A stretch of DNA of 64,000 nt from Escherichia coli. GTDB lineage: Bacteria; Pseudomonadota; Gammaproteobacteria; Enterobacterales; Enterobacteriaceae. Each line of letters begins with the position of its first letter. Position 1 is the first letter of the stretch. The stretch lies in the NCBI RefSeq assembly GCF_003334405.1, contig NZ_QOWM01000006.1; one strand, 5' to 3'. This document shows, one piece after another, positions 1 to 34,330 of the stretch. The notes beneath the pieces were generated by a model. It saw only the letters and a program-made list of their open reading frames with translations. It was not told the DNA's origin and made no database searches. The translations under genes were made by a program, and so were the position numbers.

Positions 1-64
1 AGGGGAACTCCTGTGCAAAAGACAGCAATTTTATTTTCCCTATATTAAGTCAATAATTCCTAAC

Positions 65-291
65 GATGAAGCAAGGGGGTGCCCCATGCGTCAGTTTTAT
101 CAGCACTATTTTACCGCGACAGCGAAGTTGTGCTGGTTGCGTTGGTTAAGCGTCCCACAACGATTAACCATGCTTGAAGGACTGATGCAGTGGGATGACC
201 GCAATTCTGAAAGTTGACTTGCCTGCATCATGTGTGACTGAGTATTGGTGTAAAATCACCCGCCAGCAGATTATACCTGCTGGTTTTTTTT
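65..291 (+). ncRNA. sgrS: SgrS small regulatory RNA (sugar-phosphate stress), dual-function, carries the sgrT ORF
   Basis: Sequence beginning GATGAAGCAAGGGGGTGCCCC and ending in a hairpin (ccagcagattatacctgctgg, 263-283) plus T-run 284-291 matches the SgrS sequence as I recall it; conserved 3' pairing region agtattggtgtaaaatcacc present; sits immediately upstream of setA as in E. coli. Confidence 0.88.
86..217 (+). CDS. sgrT: SgrT, 43-aa small protein encoded within SgrS
   Basis: ATG at 86, translation MRQFYQHYFTATAKLCWLRWLSVPQRLTMLEGLMQWDDRNSES, stop TGA 215-217; not in the supplied ORF track because it is below the length cutoff. Confidence 0.8.
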   Translation: MRQFYQHYFTATAKLCWLRWLSVPQRLTMLEGLMQWDDRNSES

Positions 292-3564: not shown

Positions 3565-6227
<2,663 letters not shown>

Positions 6228-6270
6228 GGTTTGGGTCCTTGTCTCTTTTAGAGCGCCTCGCTTCGGGCAT

Positions 6271-6301
6271 AAAAAAACCCGCGCAATGGCGCGGGTTTTT
6301 T
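6271..6301 (-). terminator. leu operon attenuator (rho-independent terminator between leuL and leuA)
   Basis: On the minus-strand transcript: GC-rich hairpin cccgcgccattgcgcggg followed by a U-run; lies between the leader peptide stop (6320) and the leuA start (6227). Confidence 0.85.
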
Positions 6302-6319
6302 GTTTGACTGCGTGCTGGC

Positions 6320-6406
6320 TTAATGCTGGATGCCGCTCACTCGTCTACCGCGCAAAGAAGATGCGTTTAGTAGTAGTAGACCGATAAAGCGAACGATGTG
6401 AGTCAT
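6320..6406 (-). CDS. leuL: leu operon leader peptide, 28 aa
   Basis: [28 protein letters not shown]; four consecutive Leu codons (CUA CUA CUA CUC); embedded in the longer 63-aa track ORF 6320..6511. Confidence 0.9.
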
Positions 6407-6649
6407 TAAATCAGCTCCAGATGAATGCGATATGCTTTTAGAGTTACTGGATACAAAAACGGATGTCAACCCTGACGCAATAAAAACGTCCCGCCAGCGT
6501 GAGTTCTGCATCCGTAAAATTAGCTAATTGTGCTGCGGTGGTTAAAGTAAGCGATATTAATTTCTGCTTAACTACCGACGCTTTTCATCGGTTGACATAT
6601 TTCAGCATAAATTTTTGCATCTAATCAACGAGGAAAAAGGGGACAAAAT

Positions 6650-6890
6650 GCACGCGTTGCAAAACCTATCCTGATGATTTGTATTGAATTATATGTTTTG
6701 CGATTTTTTTTGATATTGATTTGGTGAATATTATTGATCAATTAATGTTAAGAATTAATGCATTAAATATATAAATTAATTATTAAATAAGCACATTTAA
6801 TCCATTTTGTAGATGATTGAGTATTCGCGGTAGTTATGATTAGATTGTTTTCGCAACAAAAACATTATGGATTATTATGCTGTGGTAAAT
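6650..6890. promoter_or_regulatory. Highly AT-rich divergent regulatory region between the leu operon and leuO
   Basis: Roughly 240 bp of A/T-rich sequence (ttgatattgatttggtgaatattattgatcaattaatgttaagaattaatg...). In E. coli this interval is a known H-NS-bound region, which I cite from established knowledge rather than from anything visible here. Confidence 0.5.
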
Positions 6891-7065
6891 GACTCATTCC
6901 ACGGCAATGGATTCTGTTTTTATCAGAACCCGTATCTTTATGTTTTCCGAATTTTACTCATTTTGCTTTTTCTTATTTTATATGCATGATAAATCATATT
7001 CTTCAGGATTATTTCTCTGCATTCCAATAAGGGAAAGGGAGTTAAGTGTGACAGTGGAGTTAAGT

Positions 7066-8061: not shown

Positions 8062-8327
8062 ATTGAATGTAGAATTTTATTCTGAATGTGTGGGCTCTCT
8101 ATTTTAGGATTAATTAAAAAAATAGAGAAATTGCTGTAAGTTGTGGGATTCAGCCGATTTATTATCAATTTAATCCTCTGTAATGGAGGATTTTATCGTT
8201 TCTTTTCACCTTTCCTCCTGTTTATTCTTATTACCCCGTGTTTATGTCTCTGGCTGCCAATTGCTTAAGCAAGATCGGACGGTTAATGTGTTTTACACAT
8301 TTTTTCCGTCAAACAGTGAGGCAGGCC

Positions 8328-26683: not shown

Positions 26684-27942
26684 TCAAGGCGACGGACAGA
26701 AAACTGGTAGTAGGACTGGAGATTGGTACCGCGAAGGTTGCCGCTTTAGTAGGGGAAGTTCTGCCCGACGGTATGGTCAATATCATTGGCGTGGGCAGCT
26801 GCCCGTCGCGTGGTATGGATAAAGGCGGGGTGAACGACCTCGAATCCGTGGTCAAGTGCGTACAACGCGCCATTGACCAGGCAGAATTGATGGCAGATTG
26901 TCAGATCTCTTCGGTATATCTGGCGCTTTCTGGTAAGCACATCAGCTGCCAGAATGAAATTGGTATGGTGCCTATTTCTGAAGAAGAAGTGACGCAAGAA
27001 GATGTGGAAAACGTCGTCCATACCGCGAAATCGGTGCGTGTGCGCGATGAGCATCGTGTGCTGCATGTGATCCCGCAAGAGTATGCGATTGACTATCAGG
27101 AAGGGATCAAGAATCCGGTAGGACTTTCGGGCGTGCGGATGCAGGCAAAAGTGCACCTGATCACATGTCACAACGATATGGCGAAAAACATCGTCAAAGC
27201 GGTTGAACGTTGTGGGCTGAAAGTTGACCAACTGATATTTGCCGGACTGGCATCAAGTTATTCGGTATTGACGGAAGATGAACGTGAACTGGGTGTCTGC
27301 GTCGTCGATATCGGTGGTGGTACAATGGATATCGCCGTTTATACCGGTGGGGCATTGCGCCACACTAAGGTAATTCCTTATGCTGGCAATGTCGTGACCA
27401 GTGATATCGCTTACGCCTTTGGCACGCCGCCAAGCGACGCCGAAGCGATTAAAGTTCGCCACGGTTGTGCGCTGGGTTCCATCGTTGGAAAAGATGAGAG
27501 CGTGGAAGTGCCGAGCGTAGGTGGTCGTCCGCCACGGAGTCTGCAACGTCAGACACTGGCAGAGGTGATCGAGCCGCGCTATACCGAGCTGCTCAACCTG
27601 GTCAACGAAGAGATATTGCAGTTGCAGGAAAAGCTTCGCCAACAAGGGGTTAAACATCACCTGGCGGCAGGCATTGTATTAACCGGTGGCGCAGCGCAGA
27701 TCGAAGGTCTTGCAGCCTGTGCTCAGCGCGTGTTTCATACGCAAGTGCGTATCGGCGCGCCGCTGAACATTACCGGTTTAACGGATTATGCTCAGGAGCC
27801 GTATTATTCGACGGCGGTGGGATTGCTTCACTATGGGAAAGAGTCACATCTTAACGGTGAAGCTGAAGTAGAAAAACGTGTTACAGCATCAGTTGGCTCG
27901 TGGATCAAGCGACTCAATAGTTGGCTGCGAAAAGAGTTTTAA
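26680..27942 (+). CDS. ftsA: Cell division protein FtsA (actin-like ATPase), 420 aa
   Basis: 420-aa ORF with actin/Hsp70-fold motifs (DIGGGTMD); ATGA overlap with ftsQ. Confidence 0.97.
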
Positions 27943-28002
27943 TTTTTATGAGGCCGACGATGATTACGGCCTCAGGCGACAGGCACAAATCGGAGAGAAA
28001 CT

Positions 28003-29154
28003 ATGTTTGAACCAATGGAACTTACCAATGACGCGGTGATTAAAGTCATCGGCGTCGGCGGCGGCGGCGGTAATGCTGTTGAACACATGGTGCGCGAGCG
28101 CATTGAAGGTGTTGAATTCTTCGCGGTAAATACCGATGCACAAGCGCTGCGTAAAACAGCGGTTGGACAGACGATTCAAATCGGTAGCGGTATCACCAAA
28201 GGACTGGGCGCTGGCGCTAATCCAGAAGTTGGCCGCAATGCGGCTGATGAGGATCGCGATGCATTGCGTGCGGCGCTGGAAGGTGCAGACATGGTCTTTA
28301 TTGCTGCGGGTATGGGTGGTGGTACCGGTACAGGTGCAGCACCAGTCGTCGCTGAAGTGGCAAAAGATTTGGGTATCCTGACCGTTGCTGTCGTCACTAA
28401 GCCTTTCAACTTTGAAGGCAAGAAGCGTATGGCATTCGCGGAGCAGGGGATCACTGAACTGTCCAAGCATGTGGACTCTCTGATCACTATCCCGAACGAC
28501 AAACTGCTGAAAGTTCTGGGCCGCGGTATCTCCCTGCTGGATGCGTTTGGCGCAGCGAACGATGTACTGAAAGGCGCTGTGCAAGGTATCGCTGAACTGA
28601 TTACTCGTCCGGGTTTGATGAACGTGGACTTTGCAGACGTACGCACCGTAATGTCTGAGATGGGCTACGCAATGATGGGTTCTGGCGTGGCGAGCGGTGA
28701 AGACCGTGCGGAAGAAGCTGCTGAAATGGCTATCTCTTCTCCGCTGCTGGAAGATATCGACCTGTCTGGCGCGCGCGGCGTGCTGGTTAACATCACGGCG
28801 GGCTTCGACCTGCGTCTGGATGAGTTCGAAACGGTAGGTAACACCATCCGTGCATTTGCTTCCGACAACGCGACTGTGGTTATCGGTACTTCTCTTGACC
28901 CGGATATGAATGACGAGCTGCGCGTAACCGTTGTTGCGACAGGTATCGGCATGGACAAACGTCCTGAAATCACTCTGGTGACCAATAAGCAGGTTCAGCA
29001 GCCAGTGATGGATCGCTACCAGCAGCATGGGATGGCTCCGCTGACCCAGGAGCAGAAGCCGGTTGCTAAAGTCGTGAATGACAATGCGCCGCAAACTGCG
29101 AAAGAGCCGGATTATCTGGATATCCCAGCATTCCTGCGTAAGCAAGCTGATTAA
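28003..29154 (+). CDS. ftsZ: Cell division GTPase FtsZ, 383 aa
   Basis: 383-aa ORF with tubulin signature GGGTGTG and N-terminal [14 protein letters not shown]. Confidence 0.98.
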
Positions 29155-30976: not shown

Positions 30977-33682
30977 ATGCTAATCAAATTGTTAACTAAA
31001 GTTTTCGGTAGTCGTAACGATCGCACCCTGCGCCGGATGCGCAAAGTGGTCAACATCATCAATGCCATGGAACCGGAGATGGAAAAACTCTCCGACGAAG
31101 AACTGAAAGGGAAAACCGCAGAGTTTCGTGCACGTCTGGAAAAAGGCGAAGTGCTGGAAAATCTGATCCCGGAAGCTTTCGCCGTGGTACGTGAGGCAAG
31201 TAAGCGCGTCTTTGGTATGCGTCACTTCGACGTTCAGTTACTCGGCGGTATGGTTCTTAACGAACGCTGCATCGCCGAAATGCGTACCGGTGAAGGAAAA
31301 ACCCTGACCGCAACGCTGCCTGCTTACCTGAACGCACTAACCGGTAAAGGCGTGCACGTAGTTACCGTCAACGACTACCTGGCGCAACGTGACGCCGAAA
31401 ACAACCGTCCGCTGTTTGAATTCCTTGGCCTGACTGTCGGTATCAACCTGCCGGGCATGCCAGCACCGGCAAAGCGCGAAGCTTACGCAGCTGACATCAC
31501 TTACGGTACGAACAACGAATACGGCTTTGACTACCTGCGCGACAACATGGCGTTCAGCCCTGAAGAACGTGTACAGCGTAAACTGCACTATGCGCTGGTG
31601 GACGAAGTGGACTCCATCCTGATCGATGAAGCGCGTACACCGCTGATCATTTCCGGCCCGGCAGAAGACAGCTCGGAAATGTATAAACGCGTGAATAAAA
31701 TTATTCCGCACCTGATCCGTCAGGAAAAAGAAGACTCCGAAACCTTCCAGGGCGAAGGCCACTTCTCGGTGGACGAAAAATCTCGCCAGGTGAACCTGAC
31801 CGAACGTGGTCTGGTGCTGATTGAAGAACTGCTGGTGAAAGAGGGCATCATGGATGAAGGGGAGTCTCTGTACTCTCCGGCCAACATCATGCTGATGCAC
31901 CACGTAACGGCGGCGCTGCGCGCTCATGCGCTGTTTACCCGTGACGTCGACTACATCGTTAAAGATGGTGAAGTTATCATCGTTGACGAACACACCGGTC
32001 GTACCATGCAGGGCCGTCGCTGGTCCGATGGTCTGCACCAGGCTGTGGAAGCGAAAGAAGGTGTGCAGATCCAGAACGAAAACCAAACGCTGGCTTCGAT
32101 CACCTTCCAGAACTACTTCCGTCTGTATGAAAAACTGGCGGGGATGACCGGTACTGCTGATACCGAAGCTTTCGAATTTAGCTCAATCTACAAGCTGGAT
32201 ACCGTCGTTGTTCCGACCAACCGTCCAATGATTCGTAAAGATCTGCCGGACCTGGTCTACATGACTGAAGCGGAAAAAATTCAGGCGATCATTGAAGATA
32301 TCAAAGAACGTACTGCGAAAGGCCAGCCGGTGCTGGTGGGTACTATCTCCATCGAAAAATCGGAGCTGGTGTCAAACGAACTGACCAAAGCCGGTATTAA
32401 GCACAACGTCCTGAACGCCAAATTCCACGCCAACGAAGCGGCGATTGTTGCTCAGGCAGGTTATCCGGCTGCGGTGACTATCGCGACCAATATGGCGGGT
32501 CGTGGTACAGATATTGTGCTCGGTGGTAGCTGGCAGGCAGAAGTTGCCGCGCTGGAAAATCCGACCGCAGAGCAAATTGAAAAAATTAAAGCCGACTGGC
32601 AGGTACGTCACGATGCGGTACTGGAAGCAGGTGGCCTGCATATCATCGGTACCGAGCGTCACGAATCCCGTCGTATCGATAACCAGTTGCGCGGTCGTTC
32701 TGGTCGTCAGGGGGATGCTGGTTCTTCCCGTTTCTACCTGTCGATGGAAGATGCGCTGATGCGTATTTTTGCTTCCGACCGAGTATCCGGCATGATGCGT
32801 AAACTGGGTATGAAGCCAGGCGAAGCCATTGAACACCCGTGGGTGACTAAAGCGATTGCCAACGCCCAGCGTAAAGTTGAAAGCCGTAACTTCGACATTC
32901 GTAAGCAACTGCTGGAATATGATGACGTGGCTAACGATCAGCGTCGCGCCATTTACTCCCAGCGTAACGAACTGTTGGATGTCAGCGATGTGAGCGAAAC
33001 CATTAACAGCATTCGTGAAGATGTGTTCAAAGCGACCATTGATGCCTACATTCCACCACAGTCGCTGGAAGAAATGTGGGATATTCCGGGGCTGCAGGAA
33101 CGTCTGAAGAACGATTTCGACCTCGATTTGCCAATTGCCGAGTGGCTGGATAAAGAACCAGAACTGCATGAAGAGACGCTGCGTGAGCGCATTCTGGCGC
33201 AGTCCATCGAAGTGTATCAGCGTAAAGAAGAAGTGGTTGGTGCTGAGATGATGCGTCACTTCGAGAAAGGCGTCATGCTGCAAACGCTTGACTCCCTGTG
33301 GAAAGAGCACCTGGCAGCGATGGACTATCTGCGTCAGGGTATCCACCTGCGTGGCTACGCACAGAAAGATCCGAAGCAGGAATACAAACGTGAATCGTTC
33401 TCCATGTTTGCAGCGATGCTGGAGTCGTTGAAATATGAAGTTATCAGTACGCTGAGCAAAGTTCAGGTACGTATGCCTGAAGAGGTTGAGGAGCTGGAAC
33501 AACAGCGTCGTATGGAAGCCGAGCGTTTAGCGCAAATGCAGCAGCTTAGCCATCAGGATGACGACTCTGCAGCCGCAGCTGCACTGGCGGCGCAAACCGG
33601 AGAGCGCAAAGTAGGACGTAACGATCCTTGCCCGTGCGGTTCTGGTAAAAAATACAAGCAGTGCCATGGCCGCCTGCAATAA
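30977..33682 (+). CDS. secA: Preprotein translocase ATPase SecA, 901 aa
   Basis: 901-aa ORF with Walker A (MRTGEGKTL), DEAD-like motifs and a C-terminal zinc-binding tail ([14 protein letters not shown]). Confidence 0.98.
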
Positions 33683-33699
33683 AAGCTAACTGTTGAAGT

Positions 33700-33727
33700 A
33701 AAAGGCGCAGGATTCTGCGCCTTTTTT
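33700..33727 (+). terminator. Rho-independent terminator after secA
   Basis: aaaaggcgcaggattctgcgcctttttt: GC hairpin plus T-run. Confidence 0.8.
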
Positions 33728-33741
33728 ATAGGTTTAAGACA

Positions 33742-34131
33742 ATGAAAAAGCTGCAAATTGCGGTAGGTATTATTCGCAACGAGAACAATGAAATCTTTAT
33801 AACGCGTCGCGCAGCAGATGCGCACATGGCGAATAAACTGGAGTTTCCCGGCGGTAAAATTGAAATGGGTGAAACGCCGGAACAGGCGGTGGTGCGTGAA
33901 CTTCAGGAAGAAGTCGGGATTACCCCCCAACATTTTTCGCTATTTGAAAAACTGGAATATGAATTCCCGGACAGGCATATAACACTGTGGTTTTGGCTGG
34001 TCGAACGCTGGGAAGGGGAGCCGTGGGGTAAAGAAGGGCAACCCGGTGAGTGGATGTCGCTGGTCGGTCTTAATGCCGATGATTTTCCGCCAGCCAATGA
34101 ACCGGTAATTGCGAAGCTTAAACGTCTGTAG
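33742..34131 (+). CDS. mutT: 8-oxo-dGTP diphosphatase MutT (Nudix), 129 aa
   Basis: 129-aa ORF with Nudix box GGKIEMGETPEQAVVRELQEEVGI. Confidence 0.96.
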   Translation: MKKLQIAVGIIRNENNEIFITRRAADAHMANKLEFPGGKIEMGETPEQAVVRELQEEVGITPQHFSLFEKLEYEFPDRHITLWFWLVERWEGEPWGKEGQPGEWMSLVGLNADDFPPANEPVIAKLKRL

Positions 34132-34212
34132 GTCAGATAAGGCGTTTTCGCCGCATCCGACATTCGCACACGATGCCTGATGCGACGCTGGCGCGTCTTA
34201 TCAGGCCTAAAG
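34129..34212. repeat. REP/BIME element, copy 1
   Basis: gtaggtcagataaggcgttttcgccgcatccgacattcgcacacgatgcctgatgcgacgctggcgcgtcttatcaggcc: canonical REP palindromic units (GCCGCATCCG / CTTATCAGGCC). Confidence 0.85.
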
Positions 34213-34243
34213 GGATTTCTAACTCATTGATAAATTTGTTTTT

Positions 34244-34330
<87 letters not shown>

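Follow-up and report, generated by a model that had tools for sequence, protein, structure and literature searches.

The stretch of DNA analysed here, referred to as the window, comprises 64,000 nucleotides and corresponds to a segment of the Escherichia coli chromosome that runs from sgrS through leuABCD, leuO and ilvI to the dcw cluster. The element under study occupies positions 6406..6271 of the minus strand. Three ORFs located downstream of it on the same strand gave equivalog NCBIfam matches to LeuA, LeuB and LeuC, and the divergent ORF located upstream, on the plus strand, gave an equivalog match to LeuO. A short leader ORF, equipped with a Shine-Dalgarno sequence and an ATG, carries several consecutive codons for leucine, the product of the downstream operon, and an intrinsic terminator stands between this ORF and leuA, the first structural gene. 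The leader ORF starts with its ATG at 6406 and ends with TAA at 6322..6320 on the minus strand, and the ATG of leuA, at 6227, is found 44 nt past the end of the U-tract, with 43 nt in between. The coordinates of these and of the other features are collected in Table 1.

Family models agree on the nature of the element. The Rfam family Leu_leader (RF00512) matched 6420..6271 (-) over the full length of the model (1-148/148) at E = 4.5e-32 and 145.8 bits; the gathering score of this family is 50. All residues of the leader peptide (1-28/28) are covered by the NCBIfam equivalog NF007397, "leu operon leader peptide", with 80.9 bits and a cut-off of 59, while the sister model NF011328 gave 50.3 bits on the same peptide, under its cut-off of 63. 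Of 5426 complete E. coli genomes searched with megablast, 5400 have the 321-bp region, once per genome; many of them are 100% identical there and have leuL and leuA annotated. It is from these family models, from the identical annotated E. coli loci and from the presence of leuA, leuB and leuC directly downstream on the same strand that the identity of leuL is drawn. The first-pass annotation of this DNA had described a leuL leader with a ribosome-mediated attenuator of leuABCD, and that description is supported by the family models, the identical annotated loci and the gene order, as well as by the folding and the published reporter data discussed below. We therefore consider the element to be the classical E. 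coli leuL leader peptide and transcription attenuator that precedes leuABCD, with a probability of about 0.97. The leuL attenuator is already known as a textbook regulatory element in essentially every E. coli genome, and for that reason it matters little as a discovery. Its value is that of a positive control, since the first-pass annotation had placed a real attenuator at exact coordinates and the follow-up analysis recovered all of its parts.

Table 1. Features of the window, with position, strand and the basis of each assignment
Feature	Position	Strand	Basis
leuA, first regulated structural gene	4656..6227	-	ORF list; NCBIfam NF002084 2-isopropylmalate synthase, 1047 bits; identical-genome annotation
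Intrinsic terminator: 13-bp stem, loop CAUU, U7 tract	6271..6301	-	Folding; Rfam through model position 148
CCGCGC (nt 140-145), predicted antiterminator partner of GCGCGG and part of terminator 5' arm	6289..6294	-	Nascent folds
leuL leader peptide ORF, 28 codons and TAA	6320..6406	-	Translation; NF007397; annotated in identical E. coli genomes
Protector (pause-type) hairpin	6343..6381	-	Part of free-leader MFE structure; local fold -10.8 kcal/mol
Switch segment GCGCGG (nt 81-86)	6348..6353	-	Pairs inside protector or with terminator 5' arm
Leu control codons, four CUA in succession (codons 10-13)	6368..6379	-	Translation of leuL ORF
Shine-Dalgarno GGAG, 8 nt before leuL ATG	6415..6418	-	Read from sequence; inside Rfam Leu_leader match
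Presumed weak -10 hexamer TAACTC, 17 nt after -35	6441..6446	-	Spacing read from sequence
Presumed -35 hexamer TTGACA of the leu promoter	6464..6469	-	Read from sequence; promoter function inferred
14-aa hypothetical protein	about 8165-8209	-	From L001:1312-1356
SgrS	65-291	+	Rfam, 228.8 bits
STnc40	33658-33727	+	Rfam at gathering threshold; near secA-mutT junction by colinearity with reference genome
naRNA4, two copies (REP-type elements)	34131-34324	+	Rfam; between mutT and yacG by colinearity
tp2	45599-45712	-	Rfam at gathering threshold

Leader peptide and control codons

Translation of the leader ORF matches exactly the peptide given by the first-pass annotation. The Leu run had been read there as CUA CUA CUA CUC, and only part of this stood: there are indeed four consecutive Leu codons, but the fourth is CTA as well, so that all of them are CUA. 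Of the 5400 complete E. coli genomes, 5151 agree with the window at every one of the first 66 nt of leuL, and this 66-mer with the fourth Leu codon changed to CTC had no exact match among the 5394 E. coli genomes searched. The pattern with CUC is that published for S. typhimurium, whose leader is described with three CUA control codons (Carter, Bartkus & Calvo 1986, as cited in PMC1183508), against four here, and the CUC detail therefore probably stems from the literature on that organism and not from the sequence itself.

CTA is the rarest Leu codon locally, accounting for 67 of the 1851 Leu codons (3.6%) in the 43 long ORFs of the window. From this frequency, the probability of four CTA in a row, given Leu at the four positions, is about 1.7e-6. 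The 12-mer CTACTACTACTA occurs once in the 64 kb, both strands considered, and this occurrence is at leuL.

Two longer ORFs overlap the leader. The 63-aa ORF at 6511..6320 (-) came from a mechanical ORF list and is an in-frame extension of leuL to an upstream ATG at 6511; it was rejected as the gene because the part it adds precedes the presumed promoter as well as the Rfam and NCBIfam matches. This added part is upstream of the presumed -35 hexamer and is not included in the annotated leuL. The 113-aa ORF at 6046..6387 (+) was treated as an antisense ORF arising by chance.

Promoter, transcript start and terminator

The hexamers presumed to form the leu promoter have counterparts in related species. 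GTTGAC was invariant in an alignment of 30 Enterobacteriaceae leaders with four CTA codons, and the -10 position is kept as TACCAC or TAACTC in relatives. Transcription of the operon presumably starts at about 6433, an assumption that we base on the leader of about 160 nt in the older literature. A start at this position agrees with a 163-nt leader and with the placement of TTGACA and TAACTC, and the numbering of transcript nucleotides used here is counted from it.

The terminator reads AAAAAACCCGCGC-CAUU-GCGCGGGUUUUUU plus a final U or, written through the U-tract, AAAAAACCCGCGC-CAUU-GCGCGGGUUUUUUU (6301..6271). Its stem is made of nt 133-145 paired with nt 150-162, and it folds at -19.7 kcal/mol (z = -4.85), a stability reached by 0 of 200 shuffled sequences. 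The strong GC hairpin followed by a U-run that had been claimed at 6271-6301 is thus borne out by folding. An A6 run borders the hairpin on one side and a T7 run on the opposite side, so that it reads as a terminator on either strand.

A consensus terminator scan listed the attenuator hairpin on neither strand, and a simple promoter/terminator scan of 6100..6950 passed over both the leu promoter and the attenuator terminator. The promoter was missed because the -10 hexamer TAACTC does not have the final T that the scan requires. In the case of the terminator, the extension of the stem by A-U pairs probably uses up the U-tract and leaves too few T. These misses are a limit of the scan and do not count as evidence against the leuL element.

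A hairpin of this kind could also be a constitutive terminator or insulator, for example one that ends an upstream transcript, in which case the Leu-rich ORF would be there by chance and nothing would be sensed. The hairpin is strong by itself, its A6 and U7 flanks give it the symmetry of many bidirectional terminators, and at equilibrium it always forms. However, leuO is upstream and divergent, on the plus strand, so no upstream gene of the minus strand ends there, and the low probability calculated above for four CUA in a row argues against a chance ORF. The comparison with other species, described below, bears on the same question.

Competing folds of the leader RNA

The whole 163-nt leader folds at -55.7 kcal/mol, compared with -36.4 ± 3.5 kcal/mol for its shuffles (z = -5.58). 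The minimum free energy (MFE) structure of the free leader consists of a long imperfect stem, with the protector at its core, and of the terminator. In the protector, the first Leu codons are part of nt 53-59 (GUCUACU), which pair with nt 85-91 (GGUAGAC) and enclose a small hairpin CGCA/UGCG (nt 69-72 with nt 80-83). GCGCGG and CCGCGC each have two mutually exclusive partners, which is the classical 1:2 / 2:3 / 3:4 layout.

For nascent transcripts, the folds ended at the terminator loop (1..146 or 1..149), and an assumed ribosome footprint was masked. Under these conditions, G81-G86 paired with C140-C145 when the A site was placed on codon 10, 11 or 12, and also on codon 14, and this GCGCGG:CCGCGC pairing was absent from the nascent folds of the window that had either no ribosome or one at the stop codon. 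In folds restricted to the RNA 3' of a stalled ribosome, the antiterminator was the MFE structure at all four Leu positions (-19.9 kcal/mol), about as stable as the terminator. The footprint is an assumption: once the RNA already passed by the ribosome may pair across it, the probability of the antiterminator in the window is only 0.07 for an A site placed on the fourth CUA. The full-length leader at equilibrium kept the terminator under every ribosome mask; the switch is therefore visible only under a kinetic, nascent-transcript assumption, and retention of the terminator in full-length folds is what would be expected from a kinetic switch. A search for mutually exclusive folds of the leader had been proposed as the check on the first reading. 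When it was run, the predicted protector, antiterminator and terminator pairings competed and switched with ribosome position. In silico, then, a ribosome on the control codons would release an antiterminator that shares bases with the terminator.

Leucine might instead be sensed in some other way than by a translating ribosome: by a T-box, by a leucine riboswitch, by a protein such as Lrp or LeuO bound to the leader, or by Rho termination gated by leuL translation. T-box leaders do control leu genes in Firmicutes (table in PMC2836559), and the gene of a LysR-type regulator, leuO, adjoins leuL. However, Leu_leader was the only Rfam match in the leader at gathering thresholds, with no T-box or riboswitch among the matches, and the ORF and the three competing helices fill most of the 163 nt of the leader. 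Rho would not be needed at a terminator that is a canonical intrinsic one, and the control codons are located in the 5' strand of the protector, as sensing by the ribosome requires. Taken together, these points make a non-ribosomal sensor highly improbable, and ribosome-mediated attenuation is the reading followed here.

Conservation of the leader in Enterobacterales

Loci from species-representative genomes were fetched by a DNA pattern for the conserved N-terminus of LeuA, which left the leader itself unconstrained. Nearly all of the 120 loci obtained in this way belong to Enterobacterales. Upstream regions from 113 loci, the window included, were screened for an ORF with a run of at least three Leu codons, and such an ORF was picked in 112 of them. 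Most are clear leuL homologues and a few are spurious (for instance L064, L072, L091, L096 and L099). Across the 112 leader ORFs, these few included, CTA accounts for 300 of the 381 codons in the runs, followed by CTC (40), CTT (26) and CTG (6). The recurrence of the ORF, of the Leu run and of the CUA bias in most of the leader ORFs detected speaks against a constitutive terminator placed behind a chance ORF. So do the conserved alternative pairing that overlaps the terminator arm, described below, and the leucine-specific repression published for the E. coli LeuL leader (PMC2836559), and we regard that explanation as very unlikely.

No recognisable leader ORF with a Leu run was seen upstream of leuA in the endosymbiont Candidatus Steffania adelgidicola (L057), and the candidate ORF upstream of leuA in Glaciecola sp. 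(L064) is unconvincing. The attenuator may have been lost or may take a different form at these two loci.

An alignment of 102 distinct Enterobacterales leaders (A1) showed where the element is constrained. No variation occurs at G81, C82, G83, G85, G86, C139-G144 and C151-G156, and almost none at C84. The segments GCGCGG, CCCGCGC and GCGCGGG (6348-6353, 6289-6295 and 6278-6284, respectively, on the minus strand) are near-invariant in A1, while the terminator loop and the remaining peptide vary. The terminator stem CCCGCGC...GCGCGGG is nearly unchanged from Photorhabdus and Yersinia to Pantoea and Edwardsiella, with a variable loop. This freezing of the GC segments is consistent with a single segment that would have to match two partners.

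The peptide itself deserves consideration, since LeuL has a curated family model and residues such as the "RG" that follows the Leu run are conserved. LeuL could accordingly function in its own right as a small protein, or the terminated leader RNA as a trans-acting sRNA, and attenuation in cis would then be secondary. But the "RG" codons, CGC GGU, are the switch segment GCGCGG itself, and G81, C84 and U87, all invariant or nearly so, are synonymous third positions of leader codons. Invariance at synonymous positions indicates that the conserved "RG" reflects a constraint on the RNA and not a function of the peptide, whose N- and C-terminal parts vary freely between genera. We find it hard to give this explanation any real weight compared with attenuation in cis. 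A second role in trans, for example as an sRNA or sponge, for the terminated leuL RNA of about 160 nt, which would be made continuously when leucine is plentiful, or for the LeuL peptide, is a slightly less remote idea, but still improbable.

Conservation of the pairings was assessed in the same alignment. The MFE structure of the window is 75.9% paired in A1, whereas shifting the partners by 1-3 columns lowers this to 37-51%. Over the 102 leaders, the protector helix is 95.4% paired, the small hairpin 96.1% and the terminator 95.3%, with 7 of the 13 terminator pairs invariant. The protector contains one compensatory pair, U54-A90, which is UA in 49 leaders and CG in 36. In the antiterminator core, six pairs form in 99.8% of cells and never vary. 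Since this core and most of the terminator pairs are invariant, covariation neither supports nor rejects them. The inner hairpins of the antiterminator fold of the window are poorly conserved, with 44% and 73% of pairs formed, and probably lie outside the conserved mechanism. RNAalifold recovered the terminator independently, together with a small CGC/GCG hairpin in a shifted register, and nothing else.

As a check on function that is independent of covariation, the switch predicted for the window was also followed across the alignment with the partition function of nascent transcripts. The mean probability of the GCGCGG:CCGCG pairing in the 102 leaders was 0.14 without a ribosome and rose to 0.67, 0.80 and 0.73 for A-site positions at the last three Leu codons. 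A ribosome at the stop codon still gave 0.39, which is not near zero, and we attribute this imperfect separation to the crude model of the ribosome footprint. In these models, the direction of the change in pairing agrees with attenuation.

Codon choice and the protector are connected in most of these leaders, in which the CUAC of the Leu codons pairs with a GUAG just 3' of GCGC (6343-6381 in the window, minus strand). Species with a run of CUC codons (Rosenbergiella, Budvicia and Hafnia) have another partner instead (CUGGCU, UUGUUC or UGAGCC) and fewer predicted pairs; the loci used for this comparison were L011, L014, L017, L036, L050 and L101. Structure, and not rarity alone, may thus constrain the choice of Leu codon. 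The classical model accommodates both the CUAC/GUAG pairing and the frozen GC segments, and neither is a new kind of observation. The comparison of species arrives again at a known design, in which the control codons form a strand of the protector and one GC-rich segment with two partners is frozen across the order.

Some variation was observed in the spacing of the elements. Four Photorhabdus leaders (L002, L033, L055 and L056) have about 16 extra bases between the leader stop codon and the terminator. In A1 these extra bases look like a tandem duplication of AAACAGAGTTG, and two other Photorhabdus leaders, L007 and L084, are without them.

Proposed mechanism and comparison with known attenuators

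According to the model favoured by these results, transcription from the leu promoter, assumed to start near 6433, would produce a leader RNA of about 163 nt that is translated while RNA polymerase is still on it. When leucine is plentiful, charged tRNA-Leu reading CUA would be abundant and the ribosome would cross the four CUA codons and reach the stop codon. GCGCGG would then stay in the protector, or return to it, with pairing to CGCA and to the CUAC of the Leu codons, and the 5' arm of the terminator would be left free, so that the 13-bp hairpin and its U-tract could form and transcription would stop 44 nt before leuA. When leucine is scarce, the ribosome would stall on the CUA run and cover the 5' strand of the protector, and GCGCGG would be released. 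It could pair with CCGCGC as soon as the latter is transcribed, which would sequester the terminator 5' arm and allow read-through into leuABCD. If the leader is not translated at all, the protector would form and termination would be expected.

The analysis itself shows the ORF, its codons, the three competing pairings with their dependence on the modelled position of the ribosome, the conservation in Enterobacterales and the family membership, and none of the results contradicts the model. The leucine response in vivo and the pausing that would synchronise ribosome and polymerase are parts of this model that we infer or take from the literature. A fusion of E. coli LeuL to GFP was repressed by leucine and not by glycine (PMC2836559). 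Beside the protector hairpin, RNA polymerase is reported to pause in leuL with a half-life of about 28 s, which NusA lengthens 1.7-fold (PMC9291695), and the predicted fold of the leuL leader analysed here contains the 1:2 hairpin, the protector, for such a pause. A model of translation placed leuL among the sequences most sensitive to leucine starvation (PMC3783181). In Salmonella, changes from CUA to CUG lower the sensitivity, according to the citation of Carter 1986 in PMC1183508.

The attenuator of E. coli K-12 leuL (RF00512; Wessler & Calvo 1981, as cited in PMC2836559) is identical with the present one: its 28-aa peptide, four adjacent CUA codons, terminator and place before leuA all match, with no detectable difference between the two. 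The leu leader of S. typhimurium has the same architecture and mechanism as far as the citing papers describe it, and the effect of rare codons and the pause were first studied there (Carter, Bartkus & Calvo 1986 and Bartkus et al. 1991, through papers that cite them). The leader of S. enterica subsp. arizonae (L077) has four CTA codons like the window, but its peptide differs at several residues.

The same logic operates in trpL, hisL, pheL, thrL and ilvL, all of which have a short ORF rich in cognate codons, coupling of translation to transcription, and the same 1:2 protector or pause hairpin, 2:3 antiterminator and 3:4 terminator. They differ from leuL in the amino acid sensed and in the number of control codons. 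The sensitivity of leuL comes from the codon of a rare isoacceptor, CUA, more than from a long codon run. LeuL of Vibrio cholerae (candidate C1 in PMC2836559) is also leucine-repressed and has an ORF in which half of the clustered Leu codons are CUA, with an intrinsic terminator behind it, but its peptide has 20 residues and two clusters of three Leu codons (PMC2836559).

Other features of the window

Rfam matches and annotations elsewhere in the window, other than the PssrA match described below, are included in Table 1. The window is no longer colinear with the reference genome by 45.6 kb, where the tp2 match is found. Between leuO and ilvI, an identical reference genome has an annotated "hypothetical protein" of 14 aa on the strand opposite to ilvI. 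The Rfam family PssrA ("Plasmid-encoded Shigella sRNA A") gave 105.5 bits, against a gathering score of 69, at 27922-28011 (+). This match covers the 3' end of the chromosomal ftsA, the ftsA-ftsZ spacer and the start of ftsZ, whose ATG at 28003 was confirmed by translation, an odd location for a family that is plasmid-encoded by name.
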